From an uncultured bacterium (GTDB lineage: Bacteria; Verrucomicrobiota; Verrucomicrobiia; Verrucomicrobiales; DEV007), in the NCBI GenBank assembly GCA_963977015.1, contig CAXBMO010000036.1, positions 1-46,688 of the forward strand: a stretch of DNA of 46,688 nucleotides, read 5' to 3'. Positions 11,546 to 46,688 of this stretch are shown here, piece by piece (position 1 is the stretch's first letter; the number at the start of each line of letters is the position of its first letter). The notes below the pieces were generated by a model. That model searched no databases, had not been told where the DNA came from, and saw nothing but the letters and a program-made list of their open reading frames with translations. The position numbers were made by a program, and so were the translations under genes.

Positions 11546-11938
11546 GATTCAGGAACGGCAATGAGAACGAACCTGAAGGAGGCAGGCCAATCCTGTTCAG
11601 GCGTTTCAGAGGGGGGCGGATTATTTGGCGATGCTGTTTTCGAATAACGTGAAATCCTGAACCATCGCGCTTAGCGATTTCGGGGCTGTCCAAATACAAC
11701 CATTCGGGAGGGTGCGAATCCCCTGTGGGCTAGTCGATTCCCTGTGTACGCTTCATCAATGCTGTTCCGCCAGCCATTTGCCGTAAAGGACGAATGGAGG
11801 TAGTCCTTGGTCGCGCGGCGGCTTCCGCGATTCTTCTCTGGCTTAGCTAACATGAACGCAACACTCGGTAGCGACTACTGGCTAGGTTTTATCACAAGAT
11901 AACTTTCAAATCATAAGAAACGCCTCGCTTCGCTTGGC

Positions 11939-11997
11939 GCACAACGGATGCGCTCATCCGACGCGATCAGCGTTCGGGGTGGAGCGCTTTGTTTGTC
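11939..11997 (-). other. Isolated attC site (59 bp)
   Basis: Minus strand GACAAAC-AAAGC-GCTCCACCCCGA...TCGGATGAGC-GCATCC-GTTGTGC: AAC/GTT core triplets, paired L boxes with extra bases, same length as the attC at 43316-43374. Confidence 0.7.
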
Positions 11998-12122
11998 CTT
12001 GGTATTCGTTTTTGTTCGGTTTCGTCTGGGTTGGTGGCTTTTGACTTGGGAATTGGGATCTGCGCATGCGTAACTTGTTTTTCGGCCTGTGTATTCCAGC
12101 TAGCATGCCGTTAGATTTGGTG

Positions 12123-18149: not shown

Positions 18150-18155
18150 GGGATG

Positions 18156-19145: not shown

Positions 19146-19153
19146 GGCTACTG

Positions 19154-20821: not shown

Positions 20822-21184
20822 CGAAGTCGTCCTTTGATCGGATGGAGGTGAGCGATCGTTTGCGATTGCATTGGGCACTTGTGGCAGCGGGGTGACCTTT
20901 CTCTTCAATCCCCATCTTGTCTTTAGGGGGACTTCCAATATTGTCGATCCATTGATCCGCGTAGTATTGCTGGACGAACGATAGAGCTGTGCCGCCCGTG
21001 CCGAATGGGCGAGCGCCGTAGCAAATTTGATTTATGAAATCAGAAAAAAACATCGAAAGCAAGGCGCGGCGCGTGTCGGACACCAGCCGTTTGACATCCC
21101 CTTCGTTGGGTTCGGGTGGGTGGCATATTGGGCATACAATCATTGAGGCGACCAGGTCTCGCGGCACAACCCTAAAAGCATCAA

Positions 21185-21691
21185 TCAACTGGGACGTGGT
21201 TCCGCCCCGTATTTTTCTTCGACTTTCGCATTTAACCGCATTATCTCTGGAAGAGCTAGGATTCCCAATTTCGTTGCGGCGGCATTTTTCCGCCGCAACG
21301 CTTCGACGAAATCAACGACAATCGGATCATCGGATAGCGGCTCTAAAATGTTGTCAGGATAGGCATAATCTCGTGGTTCAGCTGCGTCGGGATCGTGGAC
21401 AAACTGAATCTTGCCCTCTCTCCACTCGTTTGGTGTCGGGTCATTAAGCGTTCCATAGGGAGCCTGCCATACCGCGTGAAATTCAGCTTCAACGAAAACG
21501 GATGGCCACTCCCACAAGCACCAACCCAAAAGCATGGTCCCTTGCTTTTTTGCGCATAGATTTTTCACATTGGGAATGCAATCCCCAGTCTTGGCCCAAC
21601 TTTTGGGTTGAACTTCTACGGAACGGAGAGGTTCGGATGAAAGCTGTGAGGCAAATGCGAGAATGGCCTCTGATCTGTCCGGGGTGTGCAT
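21185..21691 (-). CDS. Hypothetical protein, putative papain-like Cys-His-Asp fold
   Basis: GDCIPNV...LGWCLWEW..EAEFHAVWQAP.G.L.DPTP conserved pattern; likely start MHTPD. Confidence 0.65.
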   Translation of the reverse strand: MHTPDRSEAILAFASQLSSEPLRSVEVQPKSWAKTGDCIPNVKNLCAKKQGTMLLGWCLWEWPSVFVEAEFHAVWQAPYGTLNDPTPNEWREGKIQFVHDPDAAEPRDYAYPDNILEPLSDDPIVVDFVEALRRKNAAATKLGILALPEIMRLNAKVEEKYGAEPRPS

Positions 21692-22282
21692 CCTTGGCTG
21701 TCGCAGTGTTAGAGGGATAACTAGGGATATCCTGCAGATTCGCAGGGATATCCTTTTGTGTTTAACATTCTTACAGGGAGAATTGTGAATTGAGACGGGT
21801 TGGTAAAAGCCGAATTTGGAAAGATTTAAGGTGCATGATGAAATGGGCGCACAGCCGCCTGCGTTGGGAAGGTTATCGGGGCGAAATGGCGCTGTCAAGA
21901 CGGTTGGCGGTACTTTGTGCATGGCGCTTCGAGGGGAGAGGAGAGGGGGAGGAATGGAGGAGGTGTATTCGTTAACGAATCACAGCCGGTGGCAACAGCG
22001 CGAAGGATTTGAGTGTTGGTCTCGTAACGGCGCTACGAGCGCAAAGGCGGGGGTTGAGGGGGGGGAGTGATTGGGGATTGCCGAACCGGTTTTGGTCTGA
22101 GACTTGAGCGATCTGCCAGGCCCTCCGCAGATCCGCGTGCGCCATTCTTCCGCGATTGGTGAACCGGGTCCGCCGCACAAGCGTTGCAGGGCTTGGGATG
22201 GTCGATGACCAAGTCCGACGCGAGGTTCCAGCTCAAAGGGTTGCGGCGTTTGATGGGTTGGGGAGACGGGATGAGGGATTCC

Positions 22283-22366: not shown

Positions 22367-25300
22367 TCAGAGGTCGAGGAGTGCCTGGGTTGGTTGGCTT
22401 GGTTCGGGTTCCCGGGTTTCGAGGCCGACTTCGAGCATGGTGCCGGTGGTGACGAGGTGAATGAAGAGGCGCGCGCCGGGATGTCCGAGCGCTTCGCGGT
22501 AGGCCAGCAACTGGCCCGAGTAGCTGAGCACTTTGGCTTCCTGGGCGGCGCGGTTTCCGGGAAAGATCTTGTGATCGATGATGATGGGGCCGGTGGCGGT
22601 GTGGACGAGGTGATCGATGAATCCGGTGACGCGTTGGGACGCGGCGTTGGTGACGGTGAAGGGGACTTCGACTTCCTGTTTTACCGGCTCAAAGTGCCGG
22701 GTCACGAATTCGCAAAACTCGTTGATCGCCAGGAGAACGTCGGTGGGTTGGACGTGCTCGAAGAGGCCGAACGTTTCGAGAATCCGGTCCGCGCGCTCGG
22801 GCCGTCCGTCCGATTTGGGGTTCAAGATCTCGGCGGCGAGGAGGCGGTGCATCGCGTCTCCCAGATCGCGCTCGTCCACGTGCCCGGTAATCGGGAGACG
22901 CTTGCCAAACTCCAGTCGTTCGAGGATTTTCGCCTCCGGCACTGGTTCCGCCGATGAGGGCGTGAAGGTGGCTTCGGGAAACTCCGCCGACTTTCCAGGC
23001 GTGAACGTTGTTGGGAGCTCGAGTTCGGCCGGGGCCGGAGCAGGTCCGGGCGGCGCGGAATAGGTTTGCACCCCGGCGTTGGAACACAGTTTATCGACCG
23101 ATTCCGGCCCGAGCAAGTGTAACCAGGTCGACTCGACCGCCGGTTCGTGAAGCAGGTAGAGATGATCGCGCGCTCGCGTGAAGCCCACGTAGAGCAGGCG
23201 CAGGTCCTCCCCGTGGGCCAGATCAATCTGACGCTGGCCTTCGGCGGAATTCTCCAGGTTTTCGATCGCGAGACAGGACCCGTAGCCAAAGGGATGAACC
23301 CACATCCGGAGTTCCCGGCGACCGGTTTCTCCAGTCTGGGATCGCAGTTGAAACAGGCGATGGCGCGACGGCGCATCCAAATCGCAAAGCAGCACGATGG
23401 GCCATTCCAGCCCCTTGGATTTGTGATAGGTGCCGACGAAGATGGCGTCATCCGATGTCGTCTGCGCCTGGCGATCCTGTTGATCCGACCCGAGCTGTTG
23501 CAGAAAACCGAACAGGCCGTTGAGCGTCGAGGGTTGGCCGAAGTCGGAAATGCGACGCTCGTAGTCGAGCACGAAGGCGCGGAGTTTTTCCAGATTCGCG
23601 ATGCGGGCAGAGACCCGTGCCAGGGATGGTCCCCAGCGGCGAACGCGGTCGAGCGACTGACTGGCGGCGAGCGCGAGATCGTAAACTTCGAGCGGCGAAC
23701 CCAGCTTGACGCGCGGGTTCCCACGTTCCTCGACCAGGGCGCGAACAGCCGGCGAGTCGAGCGCTTCCGCCCAGCCCCGGCCCCTTCGATCGTCCTCGGC
23801 GTGTTCGCGGAGGTAGTCGAGCCGGTGCTGAAGCCAGGTTTCCGGCTCGCCCGACGCGTTTTCCATCGCCACGACTTCAGCGACGGCGAGAGTGTCGGAC
23901 GGATCGGCGAGGACGCGCAAGGCCGCGAGCGCAAAGCGGCATTCCGGCGTTTCGAGCAAACCTTCCGCGGTCAAGGCGACATCGCGTCCCCGGTTCTGCA
24001 GCGCTTCGGCCACGTTTCCGGCGGCGGCATTGCTTCGGCATAGAACGGCGATGTCGGAATGGCGCAGCGCCCGGGGCTCGAGGATGTCGCGATCGAGGAT
24101 CACGGGAGGGTTGGCGAGCACCTCTTCGACCACGGAAGCGATCAGGACCGGCTTCTTTCCGCCATCGAGTCGCTTGGGTTGACCGGCCTTCTGCTTGTTG
24201 CTTGCCGCATAAACATCGTCGTTATGCAGAGCCACCGAATGATAGGCCGGGCCGCCAGGCTTCGGCCAGTCCGGCCGAGGCTTGAGCTTGGTATCCGCCT
24301 GCGGCAAATCCAACTGCCGCTCAAAGGCGGGAGCGAAATGATCGTTGGTCAGGCCGACGAGTTCGGCGACCGAACGGTAGGAGGTATCGAGCGTTTTGCG
24401 TGCCTCGGCCTGCCCCACCGCACGGAAGATCAATTCCGGGTCAGCACCCCGAAACGCGTAGATGGATTGCTTGACGTCGCCTACCCAGACCACCTCGCCC
24501 GCGAGTTCGCCCAATTGCTCGAAGAGGGCCAACTGGATGGGGCTGGTGTCCTGAAATTCGTCCACGAGCAGAAGCTGCATTTCTTCGCGCAAGACATCGC
24601 GGACGTCCGCATTGGTCCGAATCAAATCGAGCGCGTCACGCTCCAGATCCTGATAATCGGCGACGCCGCGTTGCCGCTTCAACTCCTGAAACCGGGCCGC
24701 GACTTTCGCCGCGTTGGTGAAGAGCAAGCGCAGGTATTCCTGAATCTCGCGATGCAAACGCGGATGCCCGGCGACGCGGTTCATGAGTTCGGGCACGTCC
24801 TCTTCCTTGAAGTGTTTGAACTTCACCTCGGGCGCCTCGCCGCGTTCCGGATTCTTCACCCAGGCGGCCCAAGGGGCCTGCGTTTTCACGGCTCGTTCCA
24901 GGCGCTTGATGTACTTCGCGTACTTTGACGTTCCCGATTTTTCCGAGGTCGACAACTCCGCGTGAATCGCCTCCAACTCGCTCACCACCGTCTCGTCCAG
25001 GTTCTCGCCTTCGACCGCGTTCGGAAGCGCGGCCTGCATCTCCAACCAACTCGCCTCCCCCATCACCCCAAGCTCGCTCGCATCGATTTCGTTGGCGCGG
25101 GCCGCCTGAATCAGATTACAAATCGCGCTGCTCCAGTCGTAGGAACCGGTCCGGCTGTCCTTCTGGCTCAGCTGATCGCTCAAGCGAAAGAGCTCCCGCT
25201 GATCGTCTTCGCTGATCTCCGTTTCGAGGGCCTGATCGAGGAAACGCGCCACCTCGGCATCTTCGATCAATCGCAGGTCCGGCGAAATTCCGGCTTCGAG

Positions 25301-25567
25301 CGCAAACCGTTTCAGCAGCTGGGAACAGATGCTGTGAACCGTGCCGATGAGCGCCTCATCGAGTTGGAGCGCGGCTTCGCTCATGCCGCGTTCGTGGAAT
25401 TTGGCGGCGATCCGCTCGCGCAATTCCCGCGCCGCGAGACGCGAAAACGTGGTCGCGACGACCGTCTCGGGCCGGGCCCGGCCAGCCGCGATCGCCTCGA
25501 GAATTTGTTGGACGAGGTGGTAGGTTTTTCCGGATCCTGCGCCGGCGGAAACAAAGGTGACGTTCAT
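22367..25567 (-). CDS. UvrD/AddA-like SF1 helicase with C-terminal PD-(D/E)XK nuclease
   Basis: SAGAGSGKT, IGTVHS, LVDEFQDTS, VGDVKQSIYAFRGAD, TYHKSKGLEW, LLYVGFTRAR; GFIDHLV..IIDHK nuclease. Confidence 0.92.
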   Translation of the reverse strand: MNVTFVSAGAGSGKTYHLVQQILEAIAAGRARPETVVATTFSRLAARELRERIAAKFHERGMSEAALQLDEALIGTVHSICSQLLKRFALEAGISPDLRLIEDAEVARFLDQALETEISEDDQRELFRLSDQLSQKDSRTGSYDWSSAICNLIQAARANEIDASELGVMGEASWLEMQAALPNAVEGENLDETVVSELEAIHAELSTSEKSGTSKYAKYIKRLERAVKTQAPWAAWVKNPERGEAPEVKFKHFKEEDVPELMNRVAGHPRLHREIQEYLRLLFTNAAKVAARFQELKRQRGVADYQDLERDALDLIRTNADVRDVLREEMQLLLVDEFQDTSPIQLALFEQLGELAGEVVWVGDVKQSIYAFRGADPELIFRAVGQAEARKTLDTSYRSVAELVGLTNDHFAPAFERQLDLPQADTKLKPRPDWPKPGGPAYHSVALHNDDVYAASNKQKAGQPKRLDGGKKPVLIASVVEEVLANPPVILDRDILEPRALRHSDIAVLCRSNAAAGNVAEALQNRGRDVALTAEGLLETPECRFALAALRVLADPSDTLAVAEVVAMENASGEPETWLQHRLDYLREHAEDDRRGRGWAEALDSPAVRALVEERGNPRVKLGSPLEVYDLALAASQSLDRVRRWGPSLARVSARIANLEKLRAFVLDYERRISDFGQPSTLNGLFGFLQQLGSDQQDRQAQTTSDDAIFVGTYHKSKGLEWPIVLLCDLDAPSRHRLFQLRSQTGETGRRELRMWVHPFGYGSCLAIENLENSAEGQRQIDLAHGEDLRLLYVGFTRARDHLYLLHEPAVESTWLHLLGPESVDKLCSNAGVQTYSAPPGPAPAPAELELPTTFTPGKSAEFPEATFTPSSAEPVPEAKILERLEFGKRLPITGHVDERDLGDAMHRLLAAEILNPKSDGRPERADRILETFGLFEHVQPTDVLLAINEFCEFVTRHFEPVKQEVEVPFTVTNAASQRVTGFIDHLVHTATGPIIIDHKIFPGNRAAQEAKVLSYSGQLLAYREALGHPGARLFIHLVTTGTMLEVGLETREPEPSQPTQALLDL

Positions 25568-25569
25568 GA

Positions 25570-28299
25570 TCAGGCGTTATGGGGCCAGCCACAGAGGGCG
25601 GCAAAGTCGTTGTAGCGGTCGGCGGTTTTCGGCGCGGTCCAGGTTTTTCGGGGCGGGTGGCTCGATTCGTCGGGAGTGGTTGCCGCGGTGGTGAACTCGA
25701 TTTTTCCGGCGTCGAACTGCGCCTTTCGCCATCGCCAGATTTCCTCAAAATCGTTCCAACAAGCCTGCCAGTCCGACTTCCAATCCGTGTCGCGAGCCTT
25801 GTAGATGGACGGCGCGTCCGGATAGAACTCCTGGCTTCGCGCCAGAATTTTGCCATTGCCCTTGAAGATGAAATAGGCGCAGGCCGGATGCACGCCTTCG
25901 GTGCTCTGGAGAAGATGGCCGTAGAGCGCCAACTGAAGATGAACGTTCTTCTCCAGCTCCATTTTGCGGCTGGTATAACCACCCAACTTGAGATCGATGA
26001 CGCCGGTCTTTCCGTCCTGGGTCCGCACGACCAAATCGATGAACCCGCGAAGCTTTCCACCGACAAAGTCGACATCTTCAATCGGCATTTCGCATTGCGC
26101 CTCGGTCACCCCGGCTTCGCGCAGATGAAGGATCAACCGCCACAACGCGCTTTCCGCCAAGTGGAGCAGGCGCTGGCGTGACGCTTCGAAACCGAGCACG
26201 AGATAGTGCGCGGCTTGTTCGGCCAGCAGGGCATCCCAGTTTTGGCGCACCCAATTGGAGACGGCTTCCTGTTGGACCGATTGCCATTCAATCGCTGAGC
26301 TTCCCTCCTGGGCTTCGGGCGAGAGGAGGCGCTTGACCAGAATCTGGACGATGCCCTGAACCGGCGTCTCGTCCTCCAAGGCCGGGGCCAGGCTTGGGTT
26401 GACGTTCGTCTCGTCATCGGGCTCAAACAGGCTCTCGACAAAGCCGTGCAACAGGGCGCCCTGACGTCGCGCCTCATCCAACACGCGGAAGTCGAGCAGG
26501 CAACCGGTTTGCAACTTCGCGGCATAACTGAACACCCATTGATAGGGGCTGTAGACCCATTTCTGAAGCGACGAATACGATTCCTGGCGTTCGAGCTGGA
26601 GGGCGGCGGGATTCGGCAGGGTCCACCAGCGGCGCGGTTCGGGGAGCGGACGCAAGGGAGTCTTTGCCGTGGGAATGAGGCTGGCGGCATCGCGCTCGAC
26701 GCCGGTCGTTTCGCCTGCGATGCGCAGGACGAGACCGGATGGGCGGTCGTGAAGTTCCGAGTTGGATGGCGCGACGAAAACGGCGAGCGATTTTCGGGCG
26801 CACAACGCCAGTTGCTGGGTCGCCTCCTCCTGCGCCAGCAAAACCTGTTTGGAGTCGGGAAATTGGATTCCCTGAGACGTCAGCCAGGTTCGTTCGCTCG
26901 GGAACAACGGCAGGACCGGCGGACTGGACCCGGTTGGTTTCCAGGCGAGCACGTGATCCTGCGGCTCGAGCAGGTGGGCCGGACGGCGAATGGGCCAGGG
27001 TTGTCCGACCTGGCCGCGATCGCCCTCGCTCTCCGCGTTTTCGCGCAACCATGCGGCGAGCAACCGCTCCAGCTCGAGGCGGCTCACCGTTCGATCGCCC
27101 CGAAGCAGCGCCTCGAAGCGAAAGACCGCGGCGGAGGCATTACGGTATTCCTCCTTGAGACCCAACCAGGTTCCGAGAGCGCGCGTTTTCTCCGCGAACA
27201 GGGCCGCGTTGGCGCCGGCCGGATCGGCCTGCTCGGGCTCCAACCAGGTCGCGATCTGGTTCTCGAGCCGGGTTCGCTCCTCACCTTCGACCGATGCGAG
27301 GACTTCCTGCAAAGCCGTGTTCCAGGCCGCATTGCGGTAGCCGGGAGTCTGATTCAGCGAGGACGCCAGTCGAAACCGAATCTTCGCGGAAACGGGATGA
27401 ACCGGGTGAAGCAGAAATTCGATCCAGGCCTGGGGATCAAAGGGCTCCCACGACAGCCGGAGGGTAAGGGGAAGCAGGTTGAGCAAGGCGGCTCCGGTCG
27501 AAACGGTGCGCTCGGGAAGCCGGGGAGATCCCTGGGTGGCGAGAACCTGATTGAGCGAGCCAAACTCCGCCGGATCGCCGACGATGGCGGTTTCGCGACC
27601 GGAATTGCGCACGAGCCATTCCCCGGCGCCGGCGGCAAGCGTGGACTCGGAATCCGCTCCGTAAAGCGTCAGGCTTTCGTCCGCCGGAATGACTTCGCCG
27701 CTTTCCAAACCGAGGAGGCGCGCCTGAAATTTCGCCAGCGCGGTTCCGGCTTCCGCGAGCGGTTTCGCCGGACGAATTGCGCCGCTTTTTTCGGCAACGG
27801 GCAATTGGTCGAGCAACTCCCGCCAGAGCCGCGGCAGAATTTCGCGATTCCCGATCACCACGATGCTCTCCACGCCGGAATCGACCGTTCCTCCTGCCAG
27901 CAGGCGAAGAATCGCGGCAACCCGTTCAGGCTCACCGATCAACGAAAACTTCTTCTCCACCCGGGCCAGCGTTTTCAGGCGATTCGGCGCGTCGGTTCCC
28001 GTCTTCTGCGGTTCCCAACCCTCCAATTTGAGTTCGTCGCGCCATTGCAACAAACGCCCCGCCACGGCCAGGGGATCCTGCTCAAAGGAACGCTCGTAAA
28101 ACGCGCCGGATTTCTCGGCAAACAGAGCCTGCTGGTAGGCCTCGACCCGCTGCAAACTCGTCTCCAAACCGGAAACGAGCCCCAATCGGGCTTCCAGCAG
28201 TTGCAACATTCCAAGTGGCCCGACAACCGCCTTGCCCACTCCTTGAAGGGAGGGGGGCGCGACGCATCCATCGAGAAAGGGACCAAACCAGACTTGCAT
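25570..28299 (-). CDS. AddB-like protein: inactive helicase-like body + C-terminal PD-(D/E)XK nuclease
   Basis: SYSSLQKW..PYQW, LRGFIDLVV..VIDLKLG..QLALY; no Walker A; 2 nt from the helicase start. Confidence 0.85.
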   Translation of the reverse strand: MQVWFGPFLDGCVAPPSLQGVGKAVVGPLGMLQLLEARLGLVSGLETSLQRVEAYQQALFAEKSGAFYERSFEQDPLAVAGRLLQWRDELKLEGWEPQKTGTDAPNRLKTLARVEKKFSLIGEPERVAAILRLLAGGTVDSGVESIVVIGNREILPRLWRELLDQLPVAEKSGAIRPAKPLAEAGTALAKFQARLLGLESGEVIPADESLTLYGADSESTLAAGAGEWLVRNSGRETAIVGDPAEFGSLNQVLATQGSPRLPERTVSTGAALLNLLPLTLRLSWEPFDPQAWIEFLLHPVHPVSAKIRFRLASSLNQTPGYRNAAWNTALQEVLASVEGEERTRLENQIATWLEPEQADPAGANAALFAEKTRALGTWLGLKEEYRNASAAVFRFEALLRGDRTVSRLELERLLAAWLRENAESEGDRGQVGQPWPIRRPAHLLEPQDHVLAWKPTGSSPPVLPLFPSERTWLTSQGIQFPDSKQVLLAQEEATQQLALCARKSLAVFVAPSNSELHDRPSGLVLRIAGETTGVERDAASLIPTAKTPLRPLPEPRRWWTLPNPAALQLERQESYSSLQKWVYSPYQWVFSYAAKLQTGCLLDFRVLDEARRQGALLHGFVESLFEPDDETNVNPSLAPALEDETPVQGIVQILVKRLLSPEAQEGSSAIEWQSVQQEAVSNWVRQNWDALLAEQAAHYLVLGFEASRQRLLHLAESALWRLILHLREAGVTEAQCEMPIEDVDFVGGKLRGFIDLVVRTQDGKTGVIDLKLGGYTSRKMELEKNVHLQLALYGHLLQSTEGVHPACAYFIFKGNGKILARSQEFYPDAPSIYKARDTDWKSDWQACWNDFEEIWRWRKAQFDAGKIEFTTAATTPDESSHPPRKTWTAPKTADRYNDFAALCGWPHNA

Positions 28300-38208: not shown

Positions 38209-38335
38209 TATCAACGTCAAGGGTGACCCGCCACCTACAGACAGCGCCACTCCGCAATAGGGTTAAGGGTTGAAGTAAACAGGATCATGTCGACTCGGGG
38301 CGTGTAGGCGGTTGGTATCCCCCCCTTTTTTCTGT
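38209..38335 (-). other. attC site of cassette 7 (127 bp, degenerate R'')
   Basis: ACAGAAA...CCGCCTAC...GTAGGTGG...GTTGATA; R'' should be ACAGAAC to match the cassette start GTTCTGT. Confidence 0.75.
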
Positions 38336-38866
38336 CCGTTTTTCGGATTCGAGAAACCAAACGCCGTAACGAACCTTCTTCACTTGTTGCCATTTGCCGC
38401 ACGTGAAGTCCATGTGGAAGCTTAGGTCATCAAGACCCGCTCCCGTCTGCGCGATAGCTGCCCATGCCTTCCCGTCCGCTCTTTCCCAGTATTTGTTCTG
38501 GGGTAGCGATGGTCTGTATGCAAATAATCCAGTCACAAATTGAGGTTTGTCCGATCGTTCGACCCAATCATGATCATTTGAATAGGCGTCGAAACAGGCC
38601 TTCCGGAAATCTGCCGAAAAGGCACGTTCGGATGTGTGCCAAACCATGGCGGCGGCATTATCGACATACCCTATCGAGACATCAATTCCGTCATGCTCGA
38701 ACTCGTGCTCGGGGAATCGACTCGTTGGATCTCCAAGGTGAACTACTGGGCCATACCGCTCTTTGGAACGATCCAATTCTTCTCCCAGGTCCGCATCGAA
38801 CTTGCGCCATCGAATCGTGTCGCGTGCCCACCGGTAGGCCCGGAGAATTCGATGGTGGAGTGGCAT
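38285..38866 (-). CDS. Cassette 7: hypothetical protein
   Basis: ATG 10 nt after R' GTTCTGT; ORF reads into its attC. Confidence 0.7.
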   Translation of the reverse strand: MPLHHRILRAYRWARDTIRWRKFDADLGEELDRSKERYGPVVHLGDPTSRFPEHEFEHDGIDVSIGYVDNAAAMVWHTSERAFSADFRKACFDAYSNDHDWVERSDKPQFVTGLFAYRPSLPQNKYWERADGKAWAAIAQTGAGLDDLSFHMDFTCGKWQQVKKVRYGVWFLESEKRTEKRGGYQPPTRPEST

Positions 38867-38876
38867 CAGCTTTTAC

Positions 38877-39003
38877 ACAGAACGGCAGCGCTGACCAGCA
38901 CGAACCGGGAGCGCCACATCACAGCAGGTAGAGAGTTGTAGTGGGTGATGCACTTTCTGGTCACACCGTAGGGTCCGTGTCTGTGTCCGGCGCATTGTTA
39001 GTC
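38877..39003 (-). other. attC site of cassette 6 (127 bp)
   Basis: GACTAAC (contains stop TAA) ... GTTCTGT with imperfectly paired arms. Confidence 0.8.
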
Positions 39004-39660
39004 TTCAATCTTGGTCAACGTTTCAATTGCATCTCGCGCGTACTTTACTGGATCAGCCTCGATACCGTCTTCGGTCAAGTGCTGAAATTTTGCAATTACG
39101 CGCTTGAGGTAGGGGATCGCTTCCGGCTCACCGATTTCTTCAAGCGCAAGAACGGCCATTGAAGGATCTATCCGCCGGTTGCAATCTCGGTCTAGATTTC
39201 GCCCAATGCGATGCAGGTATCGCTTGCCGCCAAACTTTCCCAAATATTCTAGAGCTTGAATATAATGATCATCTCCGAAAAGCGCACAACGAATCCAGCC
39301 AATAGTCCAATGCGGTGCATCCAGAATCGGCGCAATCCATTGTTCGACAAATGGCAGAAGATATTCGTTCTCATGTTCCATAGCTCGGTCAATAAAGTTC
39401 ATCTTATCTTCTGCACTGAGCTTATCACATTTATCAACAAGCTTGATAAACAAGTCCTTGGCCATTTGCGAATTGGCATTCTTTGCAATTGCTGAAACAA
39501 GAAAGGCAATATGCTCGACTTCCGCGTGGGAAGAGGCCGACTCTGCAAGTTGTTCTAAACGTTGTAAATACGCTTCATCTGCAAGTTCACGAGCTTCGTC
39601 ATAAGCGGCACGAGCGTCTTCTTCTTTCAACTGAGCGAGTAAATCATCAATGTATTCCAT
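38998..39660 (-). CDS. Cassette 6: HEAT-repeat-like helical protein
   Basis: Start MEYIDD (39660); ALEYLGKFG..AVLALEEIGEPEAIPYL..ARDAIETL HEAT-like motifs. Confidence 0.75.
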   Translation of the reverse strand: MEYIDDLLAQLKEEDARAAYDEARELADEAYLQRLEQLAESASSHAEVEHIAFLVSAIAKNANSQMAKDLFIKLVDKCDKLSAEDKMNFIDRAMEHENEYLLPFVEQWIAPILDAPHWTIGWIRCALFGDDHYIQALEYLGKFGGKRYLHRIGRNLDRDCNRRIDPSMAVLALEEIGEPEAIPYLKRVIAKFQHLTEDGIEADPVKYARDAIETLTKIED

Positions 39661-39667
39661 ATTGACT

Positions 39668-40090
39668 ATCAAGGTAGGGACACCGGTTGCCCGGCGCCCC
39701 CCTCACAGATCCCGGCGTGCGGATTTCCCGCACCGGGCTCCTCGGAGAATCGCGCACGTTCACGCTTGGTTCTGAAGTCCTGTTGGCTCCCCATCGGATG
39801 ATAAGATGGCAGGATTGCGCTCATAAGGCAAGGCGGGGTTGATAGGCGGGGTCGATTTCTTCCACCACCCTCGCGGGCGGCAGTCGCCACACCGTGGTCC
39901 ACCGGGCTAGCAGCTTTTCCCAGGTAAAGCTTTTGCGCTGGCTGCGCCGATTGAGCCATTTGAAGATCAATCCCTTGACCTCCCGCTCGTTGGTGCCCAG
40001 TCGCTGGCTGTTTCCCAGGACGCCGTAGTAGTTCCAGTGACCCATCAGTTTGGCCCGAAGCCGATCCAGGATCCAGTCCAACGGCTTATC
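39668..40090 (-). mobile_element. Group II intron 3' remnant (maturase X domain, domains V and VI)
   Basis: KLMGHWNYYGVLGN..KWLNRRSQRKSFTW X domain (stop 39821); DV GAGCCCGGTGCGGGAAATCCGCACGCCGGGATC (39740-39708); DVI with bulged A ending CCTACCTTGAT at 39668. Confidence 0.92.
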
Positions 40091-40440
40091 TTGCGTTCGT
40101 TTTGGTAGATCGCACGCAACTTGCGGGAGTTCGCCACAATGACTTCGCATCCCAACTTGTCGAGTAGCCGACTGATCCACGGGCTATGACTTCCCACCTC
40201 CATAGCGATCCGTGCTTTGGGAAAGCGCTTCACCAACATCGCCAACCGTTCCCTGGTATTGGGGATCCGTCATTTCCGCGACAATCTCGCCCTCCGCGTT
40301 GAGGGCACCTATGGCATGTTTGCGATCGCCCAGATCAATCCCCAAGGTCGCTTTCCGATCGATGGCAGGTCGTGTCCTTTTCATCAGCAGAGAGTCTATC
40401 AACCCCGTCCAGCGACGAGGCGCTCTGCCTTCTCATCTAA
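40091..40440 (-). pseudogene. IS110/IS1111-family transposase 5' remnant, frameshifted and truncated
   Basis: ATG 40384, LGIDLGDRKH..(+1 G at ~40268)..IPNTRERL..IAMEVGSHSPW..VIVANSRKLRAIYQNERK; DEDD RuvC domain cut just before KxDxxDA. Confidence 0.9.
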
Positions 40441-41513
40441 TCTTGTTCGGTGTTGTCGGCGTCTCCGTTGTCTACGCCGGACTGCAAATGGTCGTAGCTT
40501 AGATTGTGCCCCATGAAAGTAGGCAAATTCCATTCGCGGCAGATCTCCTCGTGCATGTTCGCCAGATTCTTGAGGCTAGACCAGGTAGCAACCAGATGAT
40601 GAGTGAGAAAAGTACGAACGATGAACTCCTCATCTTCTTGCATGCTTTCTGACAGCTTCTTTGAGTCCGGGAACATCTCTTGAGTGAACCCGCCCTCTGC
40701 TGTGGCTGTGTCGATCAAGTTTGCCGTGCGTGAAGCTAATCGGTGACAGTCTGCTATTGGCGTCCACATTGGGGTGGTCTCCCAAAAATCATACTCGAGT
40801 ATTCCCCGTAAAAAGTGGCGTATTGTGAGGAGTTCGGCGGACTCAATTAGCTCTTCGATCGGGAGATAAGAGAGATGATCGTGTAGATACCGGAGTTCGT
40901 GTTCTTGGTACGTAAACTTGGTGAATGCCGCGTAAAGTTTAGGGCGCTTCGCATAGAATTTCAGGGCAGTCAGGGAGTGTTCCTCGAGGGTCAGCTCATT
41001 CTCGATAGGAATCCAAATCGTCTTGTTCCCTTTCGACGAAAACGTGGGATCAGACGGCAAAACGACCTTGTCAATTAGGTCATTGAGGCAAACGAAGAAA
41101 ACTCTTCCAGAATTCAATTCGACTAAGAAGAGTACGACAGGCAATGCCGGACTCATTGCCTGAACTGTTAGAAGCTCACCGACCTCAATGGTCAGCGGGA
41201 TAACGGTGATATCTTTGGATTCATCGGGGTTCTCCGTCAGCGGCTTCTTCTCAACGTTGTAGAGTGGGTGAACGGAAACAGATCTCGTCTGAACTTTGTG
41301 CGTCGACTTTATCTGGCCGAAGAATGTCTCTCCAAGCGTGTCGGCTTTTGTTCGCTCTTCATCGACGTATTGGAAAAGCTCGACGGCAATATCAATTCCA
41401 TAGTCTGGCTTGTAATCGCGAATCACCCACTCTTCAGGAAGCAGGCCTTTAAGCACCTCACGGCTCTTATCCTCCATGATGTGTTGCTGAACGCGCCGTT
41501 TCGGGTGAGCCAT
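40437..41513 (-). CDS. Cassette 5: DUF4365-type PD-(D/E)XK-like nuclease domain protein
   Basis: LPEEWVIRDYKPDYGIDIAVELF..FFGQIKST; its R'' ACCGAAC (40445-40451) matches the cassette start GTTCGGT. Confidence 0.8.
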   Translation of the reverse strand: MAHPKRRVQQHIMEDKSREVLKGLLPEEWVIRDYKPDYGIDIAVELFQYVDEERTKADTLGETFFGQIKSTHKVQTRSVSVHPLYNVEKKPLTENPDESKDITVIPLTIEVGELLTVQAMSPALPVVLFLVELNSGRVFFVCLNDLIDKVVLPSDPTFSSKGNKTIWIPIENELTLEEHSLTALKFYAKRPKLYAAFTKFTYQEHELRYLHDHLSYLPIEELIESAELLTIRHFLRGILEYDFWETTPMWTPIADCHRLASRTANLIDTATAEGGFTQEMFPDSKKLSESMQEDEEFIVRTFLTHHLVATWSSLKNLANMHEEICREWNLPTFMGHNLSYDHLQSGVDNGDADNTEQD

Positions 41514-41522
41514 TGTTTTTTG

Positions 41523-41648
41523 ACCGAACGATTGAGCGATGTCACTGCCTGCCGACAGCGCACTCCGACTTCTGGGTTAAGGTTTGAACGTTCATTCGGC
41601 TTCCGACTCAGCGCGGGCAGGCAGTTGATCATCCGCGTCTTGTTCGCT
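41523..41648 (-). other. attC site of cassette 4 (126 bp)
   Basis: AGCGAAC AAGACGCGGATGATCAACTGCCTGCC...GGCAGGCAGTGACATCGC..GTTCGGT; near copy of 44545-44670. Confidence 0.92.
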
Positions 41649-42146
41649 GTTGGTGGTTCGAGATAGCTGGTCGACCTTCTTGAGCAGTGTGGGAAATCGA
41701 TACGATCCATGCATCGATGCAATCTTATTGGCGGCTTCCGCGTAAGACAACCCGATTGCAGTGACAAATAGAGGACGCTCGCTGTCGCCCCTCAATACTT
41801 CAACGGCGTGCTGTGAATTCCGAAACCGATTCTTCGCAACGCCAACTATAATCGGCTCGCCAGACAAGCTCTCTTCGAGATGTGCTCCTAGGCCACCTTC
41901 GCCGTCTTCCGATAGATGGCAATATCCGTCGATCACGAAAACGGAAACATCCTCCCGGATCTTCGAAATCACGGCCAATAGGGGCTGCAACTCGCGAAGA
42001 TAGAACTGACCTGGCGTGTAATCACCGCAGTCCTCGGTTGACACCGCATACGTCCCCATAGCGCGCTCTGAATCCCAACTCTCAAACACAACCGCGGCGG
42101 CAGTGGCCTCCGTATCGGAATAGTAAACATCAAGTGCGGCGATCAT
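41592..42146 (-). CDS. Cassette 4b: endonuclease V family protein
   Basis: MIAALDVYY, YTPGQFYLREL, VIDGY, GLGAHL, IVGVAK, RPLFVTA, MHGSYRFPTLLKKVD; ATGA overlap with upstream gene. Confidence 0.88.
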   Translation of the reverse strand: MIAALDVYYSDTEATAAAVVFESWDSERAMGTYAVSTEDCGDYTPGQFYLRELQPLLAVISKIREDVSVFVIDGYCHLSEDGEGGLGAHLEESLSGEPIIVGVAKNRFRNSQHAVEVLRGDSERPLFVTAIGLSYAEAANKIASMHGSYRFPTLLKKVDQLSRTTNSEQDADDQLPARAESEAE

Positions 42147-42709
42147 CGAATCCTCCCGTCCAGAAAGTGAACAGGATGTCCCGCGATTATCTGGTCGAAA
42201 CAGCCTTCGATCCAACGCGTAAACGAAGACTCCTCACAGAAGATCGGTGGATTCAGGGCATGGTCTCCCCACGAGAACACTCTGCCGCGATGCTCTCCAG
42301 TCACGATCAACGAGAAGAACAATCCGCAGCCGATCTCTGCGACTGCGATTGTGCCAAACATCGGATCCCATTCATTATTATCCCATCGGTTGCTCCAATC
42401 CGCTGGTGCTGCGCGGTCTAACCACGCTTCGCCGTGGCTCTCTGCCTCGGGTGTAATGATAGATGGTACAGCAATCATCAATGGATTTGCGCAATCAATC
42501 CAGTATGAGTGATCCCAGTGTGCCAATGGGACTAGGCGACATGGAGAAGTCCCACCATTAGCGACATGCGATAGGAAGTCACGATATTCATCTGGCAGTT
42601 TCACCCCGGCAGCGTTCTCTAGGGCTGCGATATCTTCGATCGCGATTGGCGGCTTCGTTTGCACTCTCGCCTTCCGAGCCTTTGCTGCGAGTGACTGGAT
42701 GGGCGTCAT
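42143..42709 (-). CDS. Cassette 4a: SMI1/KNR4 (SUKH) family protein
   Basis: IAALENAAGVKLPDEYRDFLSHVANGG..IAVAEIGCG..LIVTGEHRGRVF..SFTRW. Confidence 0.9.
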   Translation of the reverse strand: MTPIQSLAAKARKARVQTKPPIAIEDIAALENAAGVKLPDEYRDFLSHVANGGTSPCRLVPLAHWDHSYWIDCANPLMIAVPSIITPEAESHGEAWLDRAAPADWSNRWDNNEWDPMFGTIAVAEIGCGLFFSLIVTGEHRGRVFSWGDHALNPPIFCEESSFTRWIEGCFDQIIAGHPVHFLDGRIR

Positions 42710-42715
42710 TTCTTC

Positions 42716-42840
42716 AGCGAACGTTCAAGAGCACTCAGCCCTGACGGAGAGCGCGGGTTGATTGTGGAACAAACTGGCGAATCAGAAAAGTCATTTCAAC
42801 TCCGGCGCGGTCAGGGCTTGAGTGCCTCGGCTTGTTCGAT
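42716..42840 (-). other. attC site of cassette 3 (125 bp)
   Basis: ATCGAAC..GCACTCAAGCCCTGAC...GTCAGGGCTGAGTGC..GTTCGCT. Confidence 0.92.
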
Positions 42841-43317
42841 GCTTCGTTTGAGGGCCCGCTTCGCAATCTCAACGATCTCCTCCGGCGAAGCGTCCGATGC
42901 GAACTTACCAATCTCCCGGACTTCCCGTCGACTCGATTCGAAAAGGTAGATATGTCCATGCTCTAACTCGATACGTACGTCACTGCGAGGTTCGCAGAAG
43001 AACGAGAGCCGCGTAGATTGTTTGTCGTGCAATCGATCGTGTTTCGTAGTGACTGCGAGAAACGAATCTTTCGGATAGAAAAGAATTGGAGAGAATCGCA
43101 AGCCCTCGATCTCCTCTGAATTCGGATCAGGAGCGTCTTCCAGTTTTCCCGCAAAGGTGAAAAAGCACTGCCACTGCGCCGTAAAACCAGAGTGCTCAAT
43201 GTCGGGCAGCCCCTGAGAAACCAGTAATTCTCGATTGAAGATCAAGTCGCGCTCCTCCTCAGCTGCGCACGCGCAGAGCCATAGCATTGCGGCAATAGAG
43301 GTGACAATTTTCATCAT
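42811..43317 (-). CDS. Cassette 3: hypothetical lipoprotein
   Basis: ATG overlaps R' (GTTCGATG); MMKIVTSIAAMLWLCAC lipobox. Confidence 0.75.
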   Translation of the reverse strand: MMKIVTSIAAMLWLCACAAEEERDLIFNRELLVSQGLPDIEHSGFTAQWQCFFTFAGKLEDAPDPNSEEIEGLRFSPILFYPKDSFLAVTTKHDRLHDKQSTRLSFFCEPRSDVRIELEHGHIYLFESSRREVREIGKFASDASPEEIVEIAKRALKRSIEQAEALKP

Positions 43318-43374
43318 CGAACGTCCTAGTGCACGCACGCGCGTAGCGCGTTGCCGTGCCACGTCTTGTTCGAT
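43316..43374 (-). other. attC site of cassette 2 (59 bp)
   Basis: ATCGAAC AAGAC GTGGCACGGCAACGCGCTACGCGCGTGCGTGCAC TAGGAC GTTCGAT. Confidence 0.92.
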
Positions 43375-43384
43375 ACTTTGGTGT

Positions 43385-44512
43385 TCACGGTTTGGTTTTC
43401 TTCATCTCGTTGATCGCTTCCAAGAGTTGAATAGTAGCACCTCCATCTAAAGCCTCACCGTCGTATCGCACCTCGTATAAGCCTTGAAGATTTGATGGAA
43501 GAGTGACGCCACGTTTCACAAGAAGTATAAATCGCTTTCCATACAGAGCCATTGCGGCACCAATTTCGATCAACACATTTGGGTTTAGCACTACATGCTC
43601 ATTGGCCTCCTGATCAACTAGCTTCAACTCATCTTCAACGTGAATGATTGCGGCGCCGCAATCCCGCATATCATTCATGACTTTGTCAGGAACAGGTTGG
43701 GAGACGGATTGTCTCTCCACAGAAACGACTGCCTCCATCTCGCCGAAAGCTAGGAGCTTCTTGATCGGGTCAACGAACTTTTTGTTCTTACCGTGGGTAA
43801 TGAAGACCTTTCGATTGGCTTCCTTGGTTTGGGTTGGTGGTGGCTCCGAGGAATTGTCTTGTTCTTCCTCATCATCAGCAGGGTCTTCTCGCCCAGTCGA
43901 TGCTCCAAAATCTGCTTCGGAGTCGCCTGCATCCTCGGCGGTCTCCTCTTTGGTAGCCGAGGGAGTGACTCCTGCAAGATCAACATATTGGCGCCCTTTG
44001 ATTTCAGTGATCAAGCCGAGAGCTTCTGCACCCTCAATAATCAGAGCGAGGACGGAAGAGGTCCGATCTTCGGGTACGCCCATGTCATTAAGTACGTTCT
44101 GGGCAATACTGTCCTTGGGAATTGGGCTCCCGTTGTAATGAGTCAGGAACTCTTTCAGCACACGTGGCTTCAGCAAGGCCTCTCGCTTGGCTACGAGGTC
44201 ATCACCCTCCACGGTTGGCCTCACGATTCGCTTCCCCAATGGAGTAAGCGAGATCTCTTCGGCATTGTAGCCGCCATCTGTAAGCCCGTAGGCGATCGAT
44301 GCGCCACAGAGTTGCCGAAACGGGCCGGAGCCGGGTTGCACGTTCATCGCGGACGCAACCTTCAGTGGGGTTGCAGGTTTCGCGGCATAGTTCTCGCTTA
44401 GCGCCTTTGGAATACGCAACGCCTGCTCAAGAGAGTATCCGGGAACATCGGATTGGCTCAGGCGTGTCTGCTTCTTCTTCGGGATCCTTGCTGCTACTTT
44501 CTTCTTTGCCAT
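43385..44512 (-). CDS. Cassette 2: N-terminal wHTH/DUF5343-like domain + acidic linker + CAP12/Pycsar-type TIR domain
   Basis: KVFITHG..PNVLIEIGAAM..LPSNLQG TIR signature with catalytic Glu. Confidence 0.88.
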   Translation of the reverse strand: MAKKKVAARIPKKKQTRLSQSDVPGYSLEQALRIPKALSENYAAKPATPLKVASAMNVQPGSGPFRQLCGASIAYGLTDGGYNAEEISLTPLGKRIVRPTVEGDDLVAKREALLKPRVLKEFLTHYNGSPIPKDSIAQNVLNDMGVPEDRTSSVLALIIEGAEALGLITEIKGRQYVDLAGVTPSATKEETAEDAGDSEADFGASTGREDPADDEEEQDNSSEPPPTQTKEANRKVFITHGKNKKFVDPIKKLLAFGEMEAVVSVERQSVSQPVPDKVMNDMRDCGAAIIHVEDELKLVDQEANEHVVLNPNVLIEIGAAMALYGKRFILLVKRGVTLPSNLQGLYEVRYDGEALDGGATIQLLEAINEMKKTKP

Positions 44513-44544
44513 ATTAGTAAGGTGAGTTTCCTGAGATTATCTTT

Positions 44545-44670
44545 ATCGAACGTCAAAGCGATGTCACTGCCTGCCGACAGCGCGCTCCGACTTCGGGGTT
44601 GATTGTCGAATGATCATTAGAGTTGCGACTCACAGCGGGCAGGCAGTTGATCATCCGCGTCTTGTTAGCT
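44545..44670 (-). other. attC site of cassette 1 (126 bp)
   Basis: AGCTAAC (contains kinase stop)...GTTCGAT with long paired arms. Confidence 0.92.
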
Positions 44671-45999
44671 CTCGTTGTGCCGCTTTAGCGCGTCGGCAAT
44701 CAGTGGGTTTCTGCATTCGACAGCATCAATTCCTCGAATGAAGGAGTTTTCTTTCTCTGCGATCATCGCAACTATTCCATGGGCGATGGAATCCCCATCT
44801 TTGATCGATGTGATGAGTGTGCTGCATGTGCCCATGGCCGCGAAGCGGTTCATTGCATCCGCCCAGTCCACAGCGATGCCCAATGCCTGAAGGCGGACCG
44901 CTTCGTCTTGGCTGGTCGTGAACACGCTCCTCATGTTGTCAGCGACAACCTCCGCGTAGCTGAAACCGAGTCCGTCACTCGCGTCCAACGCACCCTCGTA
45001 CGCGTTTATGAACCCTGGCAATTTCTCAGCAAATACTTCTTGTGATATACTTGCGAAAAACCTTGGGTCGGCCTCGCGAAGAACAGCAAATAGTTCGGCA
45101 GGCTCAAGCGAAAGTGCGAGATCCATGAATTCATTCATCTCGTCACTTCTGTATTTCAGCGATTGCAGGCGATTCTGGATCGTATCGAACTGGGTACGCG
45201 CTAAAGAGGCCGAATTGAGGTTCCCGGTTAGATGGTCAAAGGCAAGCTCCAGTGCCGCTCTAACTTCTGTGATGGAACCAAAACGCTCGTTCGGAGGAAT
45301 TCTGCAGCATTTGTCGATCACGTAGTAGAGTGGCTTCTCAACTGCGCTCGGATCGACGAAGAGAGGGTCGCGACCGGTAAGCACCTGATAGAACGCTCGA
45401 CCGAGCATGAAAATGTCTGCGGCTTCCGATGCGCTCTTAAATCCCCCAGACTCGCGGAATTCAGGAGGAGTGTATCCCTCAGTGCCCCAACCCTGTTGGC
45501 TCAGCGTTTGACGAGTGCTGCTGTTTGGGTCGAGCGCAAATCCCAGATCAGAAATCACAACATTACCGCTGGAATCTCTTAAGAAGTTGGCTGGCTTAAT
45601 ATCACGGTGAAAATGTCCGGCTTCGTGGAGCGCTTCGACGGCATCACACATCGCGAGTAAAAGGCTACGTTGGGCATCGTAGTCTCCCGCAATCTCGGCA
45701 GAAGCGGATACGAGATCACCCTTCTCGTAGATTGGCATTACAAAGTACGGCGGATCATGTTTGAGCTCTGCGTCGAGAACGGTCACGACCATGGGAGACT
45801 CAGCCATCCCTTGCATGAGGCGAACCTCACGCCTGAATCGTTCCCTTAAGCCGTCATCGCCAGAGTGCTTAAAGTACTTTACTGCGACTTCGTCACCTGA
45901 ATCGCTGTCTTTCGCCCCCATGACGCATCCCATGCCGCCAGCGTCGCTAATGCAGCTAAGCACTTCATATCGACCTGCAATAACGTCTCCGATTTTCAT
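44665..45999 (-). CDS. Cassette 1: Hanks-type Ser/Thr protein kinase with helical C-terminal domain
   Basis: GGMGCV, VAVK, HRDIKPAN, SDLG, GTEGYTPPE; no TM segment. Confidence 0.92.
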   Translation of the reverse strand: MKIGDVIAGRYEVLSCISDAGGMGCVMGAKDSDSGDEVAVKYFKHSGDDGLRERFRREVRLMQGMAESPMVVTVLDAELKHDPPYFVMPIYEKGDLVSASAEIAGDYDAQRSLLLAMCDAVEALHEAGHFHRDIKPANFLRDSSGNVVISDLGFALDPNSSTRQTLSQQGWGTEGYTPPEFRESGGFKSASEAADIFMLGRAFYQVLTGRDPLFVDPSAVEKPLYYVIDKCCRIPPNERFGSITEVRAALELAFDHLTGNLNSASLARTQFDTIQNRLQSLKYRSDEMNEFMDLALSLEPAELFAVLREADPRFFASISQEVFAEKLPGFINAYEGALDASDGLGFSYAEVVADNMRSVFTTSQDEAVRLQALGIAVDWADAMNRFAAMGTCSTLITSIKDGDSIAHGIVAMIAEKENSFIRGIDAVECRNPLIADALKRHNES

Positions 46000-46007
46000 T
46001 TCTTTTG

Positions 46008-46027
46008 AGCTAACAGTATATTATTCC
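46008..46027 (-). other. Putative attI site (first recombination point of the array)
   Basis: GGAATAAT-ATACT-GTTAGCT; the core is the exact complement of cassette 1 R'' AGCTAAC; AT-rich and no attC hairpin upstream. Confidence 0.65.
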
Positions 46028-46633
46028 ACTTGAAGGGCTGATATCCAAATCATGAAATTGGACTTAAATGATTAAGGAATATGGATCGTTTGTCTTTGGT
46101 GTTCATGGTGATTCACGATGATTGTGGGAATTGTCAAGATCTGGCTGCCGCCCTGAGATTTGCAAGTGGACTAGCAATACGGGATTTTGCCGCCTTCGAC
46201 AAGGATGTTCCGATATGATGAGGAGTTTTTCTTGGCGCGGGATTTCTCACTTTTGAGATTTTTGAATTGCTCCCGGTTGATGGGGGATCTTGCAATGAAC
46301 GCATGAGGATCGTAGTTCATGAAGATTTTGAGGGGCCTTTGGCCGTTCATCACGAAGAGGCTTTCCGTGCGCTGCGATGGTTAGGGAGCGTCGGTCAACT
46401 TAGCCGGGTCTCCACAGGGGTTTGTTCCTGTGGAACAGAGGCCACCCACCAGCCCATTACCATCCATCCGCTCGCCCCGGGTGGCCTTGCGCCAGTCGCG
46501 CGCTGACGCCGTTTGGCACCGTCAAAAACCAGATCGTGTGGCTGGAAGGAGTCAGCGCTCCACCGGCATGAAGCCGGGGGGGCGATGGGGTTCAGGAGAC
46601 GGTTCTGGTGGTTGATCGAGCACCCACCGGGGC

Positions 46634-46688
46634 GAGCCCGGAGGAGAGCCCGGAGGAGAGCCCGGAGGAGAGCCCGGAGGAGAGCCCG
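46634..46688. repeat. 12-bp tandem repeat GAGCCCGGAGGA (~4.6 copies, runs off window)
   Basis: Directly visible at the window end. Confidence 0.95.

Follow-up and report, generated by a model that had tools for sequence, protein, structure and literature searches.

The window analysed here, the whole of contig C36 (46,688 bp) from the 6.9-Mb, 51-contig and 95% complete assembly G000 of an uncultured Verrucomicrobiales bacterium, carries seven co-oriented gene cassettes on its minus strand (46013-38215; eight open reading frames (ORFs) in seven cassettes). It is very probable that this region is an integron cassette array of the CALIN class, a category defined by two or more attC sites that lack a nearby integrase (PMC4889954), and that it is headed by a non-folding, orphan leader of attI type that recurs throughout the genome. 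An earlier note on this DNA had called the region an integron; the integron-type array stands and a complete integron does not, as the contig holds no integrase and the array is hence a CALIN. In the classes of IntegronFinder, the genome contains an In0, CALINs and single sites. The relatives used in comparison include G001, a genome of the same genus, G023, a complete genome of the same order, and G002.

Cassette boundaries and attC sites

In all seven cassettes, the four variable bases that follow GTT at the cassette start are the complement of the four that precede its own AAC. This complementarity is far beyond chance, being reproduced in 2 of 5040 permutations of the cassette ends. The alternative pairing, of R'' with R' within one attC, gives a match in 1/7, and complementarity therefore follows the cassette, not the hairpin. 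The pattern is the one expected of circles joined at G|TT. We propose that an integron integrase, which would cut the attC bottom strand between G and TT, inserted as circles seven promoterless cassettes that each ended in a folded attC; the bases at the two ends match because the circles were joined at this cut.

Cassette 1 (46013-44551) holds a Ser/Thr kinase ORF (45999-44665, 444 aa) and ends in attC1 (44670-44545, 126 nt), with GTTAGCT (46014-46008) and AGCTAAC (44670-44664) as its motif pair; this and all following features of the array are on the minus strand. Cassette 2 (44550-43322) encodes a protein with a helical N-domain and a PF10137 TIR domain (44512-43385, 375 aa), followed by the short attC2 (43374-43316, 59 nt), its ends marked by GTTCGAT (44551-44545) and ATCGAAC (43374-43368). 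The same two motifs, at 43322-43316 and 42840-42834, delimit cassette 3 (43321-42722), in which a putative lipoprotein ORF (43317-42811) runs into attC3 (42840-42716, 125 nt), the R'' box lying within the ORF end. Two ORFs share cassette 4 (42721-41529), where a SUKH-1 gene (42709-42143) overlaps by ATGA with an EndoV-like gene (42146-41592) ahead of attC4 (41648-41523, 126 nt), between GTTCGCT (42722-42716) and AGCGAAC (41648-41642).

The next boundary is damaged. Cassette 5 (41528 to ~40441) carries a DUF4365 nuclease ORF (41513-40437, 358 aa) between GTTCGGT (41529-41523) and ACCGAAC (40451-40445), and this R'' box together with AAGA is what remains of attC5. Cassette 6 (39667-38883), with a HEAT-repeat-like ORF (39660-38998, 220 aa) and attC6 (39003-38877, 127 nt), pairs AGTC (39667-39664) with GACTAAC (39003-38997); it starts without GTT because the 3' end of a group II intron abuts AGTC. 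Cassette 7 (38882-38215) encodes a hypothetical protein (38866-38285, 193 aa) and begins with GTTCTGT (38883-38877). Its attC7 (38335-38209, 127 nt) has an R'' decayed to ACAGAAA (38335-38329), with AAA in place of AAC, and the last R' of the array reads GTTGATA (38215-38209).

Six of the seven attC sites are complete (59 and 125-127 nt) and attC5 is truncated. Folded as single-stranded DNA, their bottom (plus) strands pair the R boxes, leave the spacer unpaired and form an L stem with bulged bases on one arm, on a side that we take to fit the orientation of the cassettes. Compared with shuffles, whole-site folding is clearly stable in attC2 (z -3.07) and attC3 (z -2.59) and weakly so in attC4 (z -1.68). 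The stems also covary across the six sites: 81.7% of cells are paired, against 29-42% when the partner is slid, eight pairs are altered on both sides, and none of 500 shuffles reaches the score.

A covariance model built from the six complete sites finds matches in 25 of the 31 genomes searched (G000 included), among them 18/18 other genomes of the same family. No attC family exists in Rfam, whose sole match in the window is RF00029 (group II intron). In G023, long co-oriented attC arrays start beside two integrase genes that score above the TIGR02249 cut-off, and in G001 an array of nine attC matches (E <=0.0037, contig C21) abuts a divergent integrase, likewise above the cut-off. On this comparative footing the window sites are integron attC sites, and we take the integrase-adjacent arrays of the relatives as independent proof. 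As to their layout in G023, one integrase is co-oriented with its array and the other divergent, the attC matches extending over about 35 kb and 8 kb.

The complement rule also applies beyond the array. For attC matches elsewhere in the genome, an exact 7-mer complement lies within 1200 nt upstream in 9/14 cases, with 1.06 expected and 1/14 in a downstream control; cassettes are therefore scattered at many loci. Within the array, attC1 and attC4 are near-identical (138.1 and 129.6 bits), and a site in a relative, G002:C334:4543-4678, scores 126.5 bits on the same model.

The earlier note had listed a chain of seven motif pairs, and all seven are present on the minus strand at the ends it gave. 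Its reading of them as the signature of circular cassettes joined by an integron integrase agrees with the 7/7 complement and 2/5040 permutations, and integron-type cassettes are borne out by the attC folds, the covarying stems and the same site family beside integrases in relatives. Folding of the attC bottom strands, which it had put forward as a check, pairs the R boxes and L stem, with whole-site energy unremarkable in 3/6. Its assignment to the PVC lineage fits Verrucomicrobiales.

Recurrent leaders and a distant integrase

The array is headed by repeat A, an attI-type leader of ~235 bp (46012-46247, minus strand) that ends in ...ACTGTT, or ...GGAATAATATACTGTT, at the crossover. Six copies are present in the G000 genome, with the terminal sequence ...TAATATACTGTT, and homology among them stops at GTT, mean identity dropping from 0.90 over the last 30 nt to 0.36 over the next 30. 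In 4/6 copies (window, C6, C18 and C19), GTT is followed by four bases complementary to those of R'' in the next attC; of the remaining two, one misses the complement by one base and one runs off its contig. The possibility that repeat A is a long attC was rejected, as it shows no fold (z 0.12) and no match to the attC model. Across 30 relatives (E <=1e-5) no full copy of repeat A was found, the sole match being 55 nt in G002.

G000 also contains seven copies of another leader family, repeat C, which ends in a hairpin followed by ...CCCCAGTT. Its identity falls at GTT from 0.75 to 0.33, and the complement rule holds in 6/7 copies. A 75-nt core of repeat C is also found in three copies in G001 and one in G002. 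The window copy (about 21830-21719, minus strand, ending ...CCCTAGTT) stands over a decayed single cassette (20968-21830, minus strand) that comprises an ORF of ~162 aa with no family (21672-21185) and an attC-like site (21104-20968, 32.8 bits); here GTT|ATCC complements the GGAT of R'' GGATGTC.

Leaders of both families thus end exactly at the crossover, and the complement rule holds in 10/13. They share further features. In 3/6 copies of repeat A and 4/7 of repeat C, the crossover is preceded at 140-142 nt by a GGYRGCAG box; one further copy, the fifth of repeat C, has the box at 137 nt. Repeat A encloses a short ORF (46050-46106, minus strand, 18 codons) that is in frame in 5/6 copies, and repeat C a short upstream ORF of about 21-24 codons ending ..QFSLQEC; as read from the alignments, the short ORFs of both families stay in frame despite insertions and deletions. 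A motif ..GTAGCGCCGTTGCGAGAAATCCC.. is common to the regions upstream of repeat A and repeat C copies (C19, C31 and about 46240 in the window).

In relatives, the complement rule locates the attI ends beside integrase genes; they read ...AATAAAACTGTT, ...CTAATACTGTT and ...TATAAAACGTT in G023 and G001, and about 350 to 950 nt separate attI from the integrase. A 5.3-kb contig of G002 has an array-internal junction, ...GAATAATACTGTT, with no integrase shown beside it. The attI-type ends of G023, G001 and G002 are close to the ...GGAATAATATACTGTT of repeat A, a likeness that concerns a short motif and was judged by eye; BLAST of repeats A and C against the integrase-adjacent regions gave nothing significant. 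Because its A/T-rich end resembles the attI ends beside integrase genes, the leader is most likely a docking site (attI), and possibly also supplies a promoter and leader to the first cassettes. Repeat A shows the attI traits of heading the array, forming no hairpin and presenting a crossover GTT followed by the first cassette. It lacks that of adjoining its own integrase, for no integrase match occurs on C19, C6 or C18, the three contigs with mid-contig copies. Judged by sequence features of this kind, the copies of both repeats resemble orphan attI sites.

Leaders can also sit inside arrays. On C41 (L012, C41:1-1400), two repeat A copies are in tandem with a cassette between them, and on G002:C334 (L026) a repeat C core is followed 2.2 kb on, on the same contig, by an attI-like ...AATAATACTGTT junction. 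The window and C41 copies of repeat A lie near contig ends.

Integron integrases were called with TIGR02249 (cut-off 265 bits) over the 51 contigs. No match occurs on C36, whose array starts 674 bp from the contig end, and the one match above the cut-off in the assembly is C1:216518-217420 (290-291 bits; gene G000:C1:216131-217426, L007:132-1427), the remaining matches being Xer-like. Of the contigs that carry leaders, C31 alone matches the integrase model, at 34 kb from the leader and with 26.5 bits, a weak score that falls far short of the cut-off. The C1 protein aligns to VchIntIA (2a3v) over residues 134-429, including the integron-specific W..W..FP insertion segment. With all filters off, no attC was found within 20 kb on either side of its gene. 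An ortholog in G001 is 72% identical and shares an N-terminal extension of ~130 aa; no attC match at E <=1 occurs in the 15-kb stretch searched around it, and the second integrase of G001 is the one with an adjacent array. The integrase of G000 would thus act, or have acted, in trans, the only one in the assembly being on C1 without cassettes.

Taken one step further, the genus may run a 'distributed integron', in which one cassette-less integrase serves at least 13 orphan docking modules of two families, dispersed along the chromosome and each seeding a mini-array of 1-7 cassettes, a model that we hold tentatively and at somewhat short of even confidence. The array itself is of a known kind, an integron with defence genes, and what is new is the multiplication of integrase-less leaders. 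The genome, with this array, resembles the CALIN and In0 classes of PMC4889954, which lists Verrucomicrobia among the phyla with integrons, in combining an attC cluster without a nearby integrase and a cassette-less integrase elsewhere in the genome. Unlike the CALINs described there, the array keeps an attI-type head, one of 13 leaders in two families that are each followed by 1-7 cassettes; a limited literature search found no report of attI-like sites in CALINs. The attG/SALIN route (bioRxiv 10.1101/2022.09.11.507474) is similar in that single cassettes and small arrays are scattered away from the integrase by G|TT-type insertion. The attG sites described there follow a loose GWT consensus at very many places, unlike the 13 insertion points here, which share two long conserved leaders and of which none is demonstrably empty.

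Integrons outside the Proteobacteria are little studied and the origin of CALINs is unsettled, and the present array keeps a recognisable docking sequence. The occurrence of that sequence at many loci with cassettes of their own suggests a testable model of one integrase and many dispersed attI sites, and the exact leader and attC sequences are available for a recombination assay. If the model were true, attI sites could multiply and work far from intI, and many CALINs would be working outposts, not debris, in which the leader supplies transcription and translation start signals to captured genes.

Rival readings and damage to the array

Several observations weigh against a CALIN-class array with a recurrent attI-type head. 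The whole-site folds of attC1, attC6 and attC7 are no better than shuffles (z -1.02, +1.47 and +0.91). The attC model was trained on the window's own sites and is circular for the window, independent support coming from the matches in relatives only. Promoter-like (sigma-70-like) matches in the region are at chance level, with 6 found and 5.6 expected, one of them inside the leader (46047-46020). Upstream of the first crossover, the contig continues for 674 bp and breaks off within a repeat that resembles a miniature inverted-repeat transposable element (MITE) and has a 12-nt tandem run, and the assembly is 95% complete. In the C1 integrase, the first catalytic Arg is replaced by Lys (GLKLTEL), a position at which 4/4 compared relatives have Arg. 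Finally, no excision or deletion joints were found in metagenome contigs compared with the region, which are short and of low depth (Logan contigs from four marine metagenome runs of one study, containing 0.21-0.51 of the sampled words).

The unremarkable fold energies of three of the six sites, together with the presence of MITE-like repeats in the genome, would suit intergenic palindromes (repetitive extragenic palindromes (REP), MITEs or terminators) among which the chain of motifs is a coincidence. We regard this as extremely improbable, given the permutation result, the genome-wide excess of upstream complements, the covariation of the stems and, in relatives, arrays of these sites next to integron integrases.

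The position of the contig end bears on another alternative, that the region forms the integrase-proximal part of a complete integron, with an integrase gene just past the contig end that is missing because the assembly broke in the repeat. The 674 bp available compare with the 350 to 950 nt between attI and integrase in relatives, the congener G001 does have a second integrase with an adjacent array, and the assembly leaves room for a missing gene. On the other hand, no second integron integrase, whole or partial, occurs in the 51 contigs, the three other repeat A copies on C19, C6 and C18 lie mid-contig without an integrase match, and the translated ORFs upstream of the C18 copy look, by reading only, like ordinary chromosomal genes. 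We consider this alternative unlikely and retain the CALIN interpretation. The MITE-like repeat in which C36 ends is ~290 bp long (46391-46688), with terminal inverted repeats GAATGGCGCAAGGTTAA... and the 12-nt tandem run CGGGCTCTCCTC; copies are found on C4, C8, C6, C10 and C1, some of them beside attC sites.

The array is damaged at attC5. Directly after the AAC-AAGA of this site stands a 5' fragment of an IS110-family element (40440-40089, ~350 nt, minus strand). C18 has a full copy of the element, with a transposase scoring 230.3 bits (cut-off 140), and the fragment matches the left end of that copy at 95% identity. The junction AAC-AAGA|TTAGATGAG is identical in the window, C18 and C19. 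Further on lies the 3' remnant of a group II intron (39993-39668, minus strand, in cassette orientation), comprising a maturase fragment and domains V/VI (RF00029 at 39742-39668, 44.4 bits), which abuts AGTC at a point where GTT|AGTC would be expected. Nothing more of attC5 is left, and cassettes 5 and 6 are therefore no longer separable. From these remnants it would appear that, once the array had been assembled, attC5 was struck both by an IS110-family element of the attC-targeting kind and by a group II intron, and that a deletion between the two then fused the cassettes.

Targeting of attC by IS1111/IS110 elements is described in PMC11187229, and the element here likewise sits at a fixed point of attC, after AAC-AAGA, at three to four sites. 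The position of the intron at the R' end of an attC recalls the group IIC-attC introns of PMC7923331. As described there, IIC-attC introns insert at R'' on the bottom strand, opposite to the cassettes, unlike the window remnant, which runs with them. A related arrangement occurs on C18 (L013, C18:41000-56000), where repeat A is followed by a cassette, a full IS110-family element in an attC, a cassette, a short attC and a full group II intron (reverse transcriptase of 472 aa); further on come a second intron 3' piece, 98% identical to the window remnant, and a second left end of the insertion sequence.

Such decay raises the possibility that the array is a fossil, its integrase gone or inactive and its cassettes now fixed chromosomal genes, and although we lean against this reading it carries real weight. 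Besides the destroyed attC5, the R'' of attC7 and the second cassette locus of the window are decayed, and joints are missing from the metagenome contigs. The sole integrase has Lys at catalytic Arg I; its H-x-x-R, His and Tyr are present, the catalytic positions being assigned as we presume them from the family. In other tyrosine recombinases, an Arg-to-Lys change at the first catalytic position impairs catalysis, and present-day activity of the C1 integrase is therefore uncertain. The Lys codon could, on the other hand, be a population variant or an error, and the lone integrase is conserved, N-terminal extension included, in G001. Five attC sites retain their AAC and GTT boxes and stems, and the near-identity of attC1, attC4 and the G002:C334 site suggests recent exchange. 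Two single loose ends in the metagenome contigs, one at 41607 within attC4 and one at 38995 where attC6 starts, may come from other cassettes that share attC sequence and are too thin to use.

Cassette cargo and neighbouring loci

The earlier note had also proposed a bank of cassettes enriched in candidate defence genes. The array does hold defence-type, partly conflict-related content, in the form of a TIR protein, a nuclease with a SPARDA-type fold, a generic kinase and a SUKH and EndoV pair. Statistical enrichment is not claimed: strong PADLOC matches were obtained for 2/8 cassette ORFs, one of them a generic kinase domain, and for 3/10 of the next ten non-cassette genes, through generic helicase, nuclease and ATPase domains. 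Match counts were rejected as a measure, since with 3/10 in the control they show no enrichment. Three cassettes have no lead, the lipoprotein, hypothetical and HEAT-like proteins giving none in Pfam, PADLOC or NCBIfam. In a protein atlas, the best feature score of the hypothetical protein is 0.89, its structural neighbours being unnamed Verrucomicrobiota proteins at a TM of about 0.5, and that of the lipoprotein 0.79, neither pointing to a function.

The TIR protein of cassette 2, of NADase type, matches PF10137 (3.3e-18, 66.2 bits against a cut-off of 24.7) and the PADLOC candidate PDC-S35 (2.3e-15). In its structural model a helical N-domain, predicted with confidence, is joined through a disordered acidic linker to a TIR domain that matches TIR-STING and SARM1 folds. 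Full-length relatives are numerous (4875 at E <=1e-5 among 8000 scored), and one of 77% identity in Halopseudomonas, a gammaproteobacterium, points to a probable recent transfer between phyla. The PF10137 domain is also the point of likeness to the TIR effectors of CBASS and Pycsar (Cap12/PycTIR); no cyclase accompanies the TIR gene in this single-gene cassette, to which the search was confined.

The DUF4365 protein of cassette 5 (PF14280, 7.3e-09) belongs to a full-length family of 375 proteins, with named members in Longimicrobium, Paenibacillus and Bacillus, in which the positions D..D...Q-x-K are invariant. Its model (pLDDT 90.6) has an all-helical C-terminal half, and the top 11 PDB matches shown are chains of the SPARDA nuclease subunit (best E 3.3e-04). 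No APAZ domain match was obtained, and the single-gene cassette holds no partner short Argonaute. By its predicted structure, the protein shares the SPARDA effector fold (PD-(D/E)XK, DREN) and is not a SPARDA system. A search for it in 150 further genomes of the order (E <=1e-10) yielded nothing, and so no cassette context in relatives; the C-terminal part of the protein has no crr6 family match in Pfam at E <=0.01.

Sedentary chromosomal integrons, with their tens to hundreds of cassettes, store anti-phage systems, among them the Vibrio cassette defence protein Divona with an N-terminal DUF4365 (bioRxiv 10.1101/2024.07.02.601686). The present array shares with them compact defence-type cassette proteins, including DUF4365. 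Unlike the integrons described there, it has seven cassettes and belongs to a different phylum.

Evidence for the other cassettes is more generic. The Hanks-type kinase of cassette 1 (Pkinase, 4.3e-31) has the Lys, HRD, DLG and PPE motifs by inspection; its PADLOC match to PD-T4-6 (2.6e-36) covers residues 1-216 only, and its NCBIfam matches are generic kinases, all far below cut-off. SUKH proteins are predicted to confer immunity to nuclease and deaminase toxins (PMC3113570), and the SUKH-1 and EndoV-like pair of cassette 4 may combine toxin immunity and DNA repair. Together with this pair, the TIR protein and the stand-alone SPARDA-type nuclease family offer compact, widely transferred single-gene candidates for phage defence.

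Of ten cassette ORFs from other loci of the genome, three have PADLOC matches and seven none; one of the ten has a TIR/SpbK-like match (8.1e-12). A cassette on C28 (L022:1871-2797) encodes a bSEFIR-type protein (PADLOC, 1.6e-63), one on C6 (L020:2161-3321) a DUF2513-TIR protein, and one on C31 (L017:1766-2428) a DUF4145 protein matching PD-T7-4 (3.6e-08).

The genes of the region all lie on the minus strand, sulfatase genes are found downstream of the array on C36, and the metagenome runs that hold array sequence are marine. Elsewhere in the window, the stretch 11934-21000 resembles a defence island. It encodes a TIR-STAND/NACHT protein of 2008 aa (12123-18149), an AAA ATPase (18156-19145) and a TIR_2 protein of 594 aa (19154-20938), and these genes are followed immediately downstream by a short sequence resembling attC (11934-12002, 20.9 bits). 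A single giant cassette spanning the 9 kb from 12026 to 20978 was rejected, the expected end motif occurring there five times. Beyond it, an AddA/AddB-like helicase-nuclease pair (22367-28299) gives strong PADLOC matches to GajB and DruK through generic domains, which calls for caution with domain-based assignments to defence.

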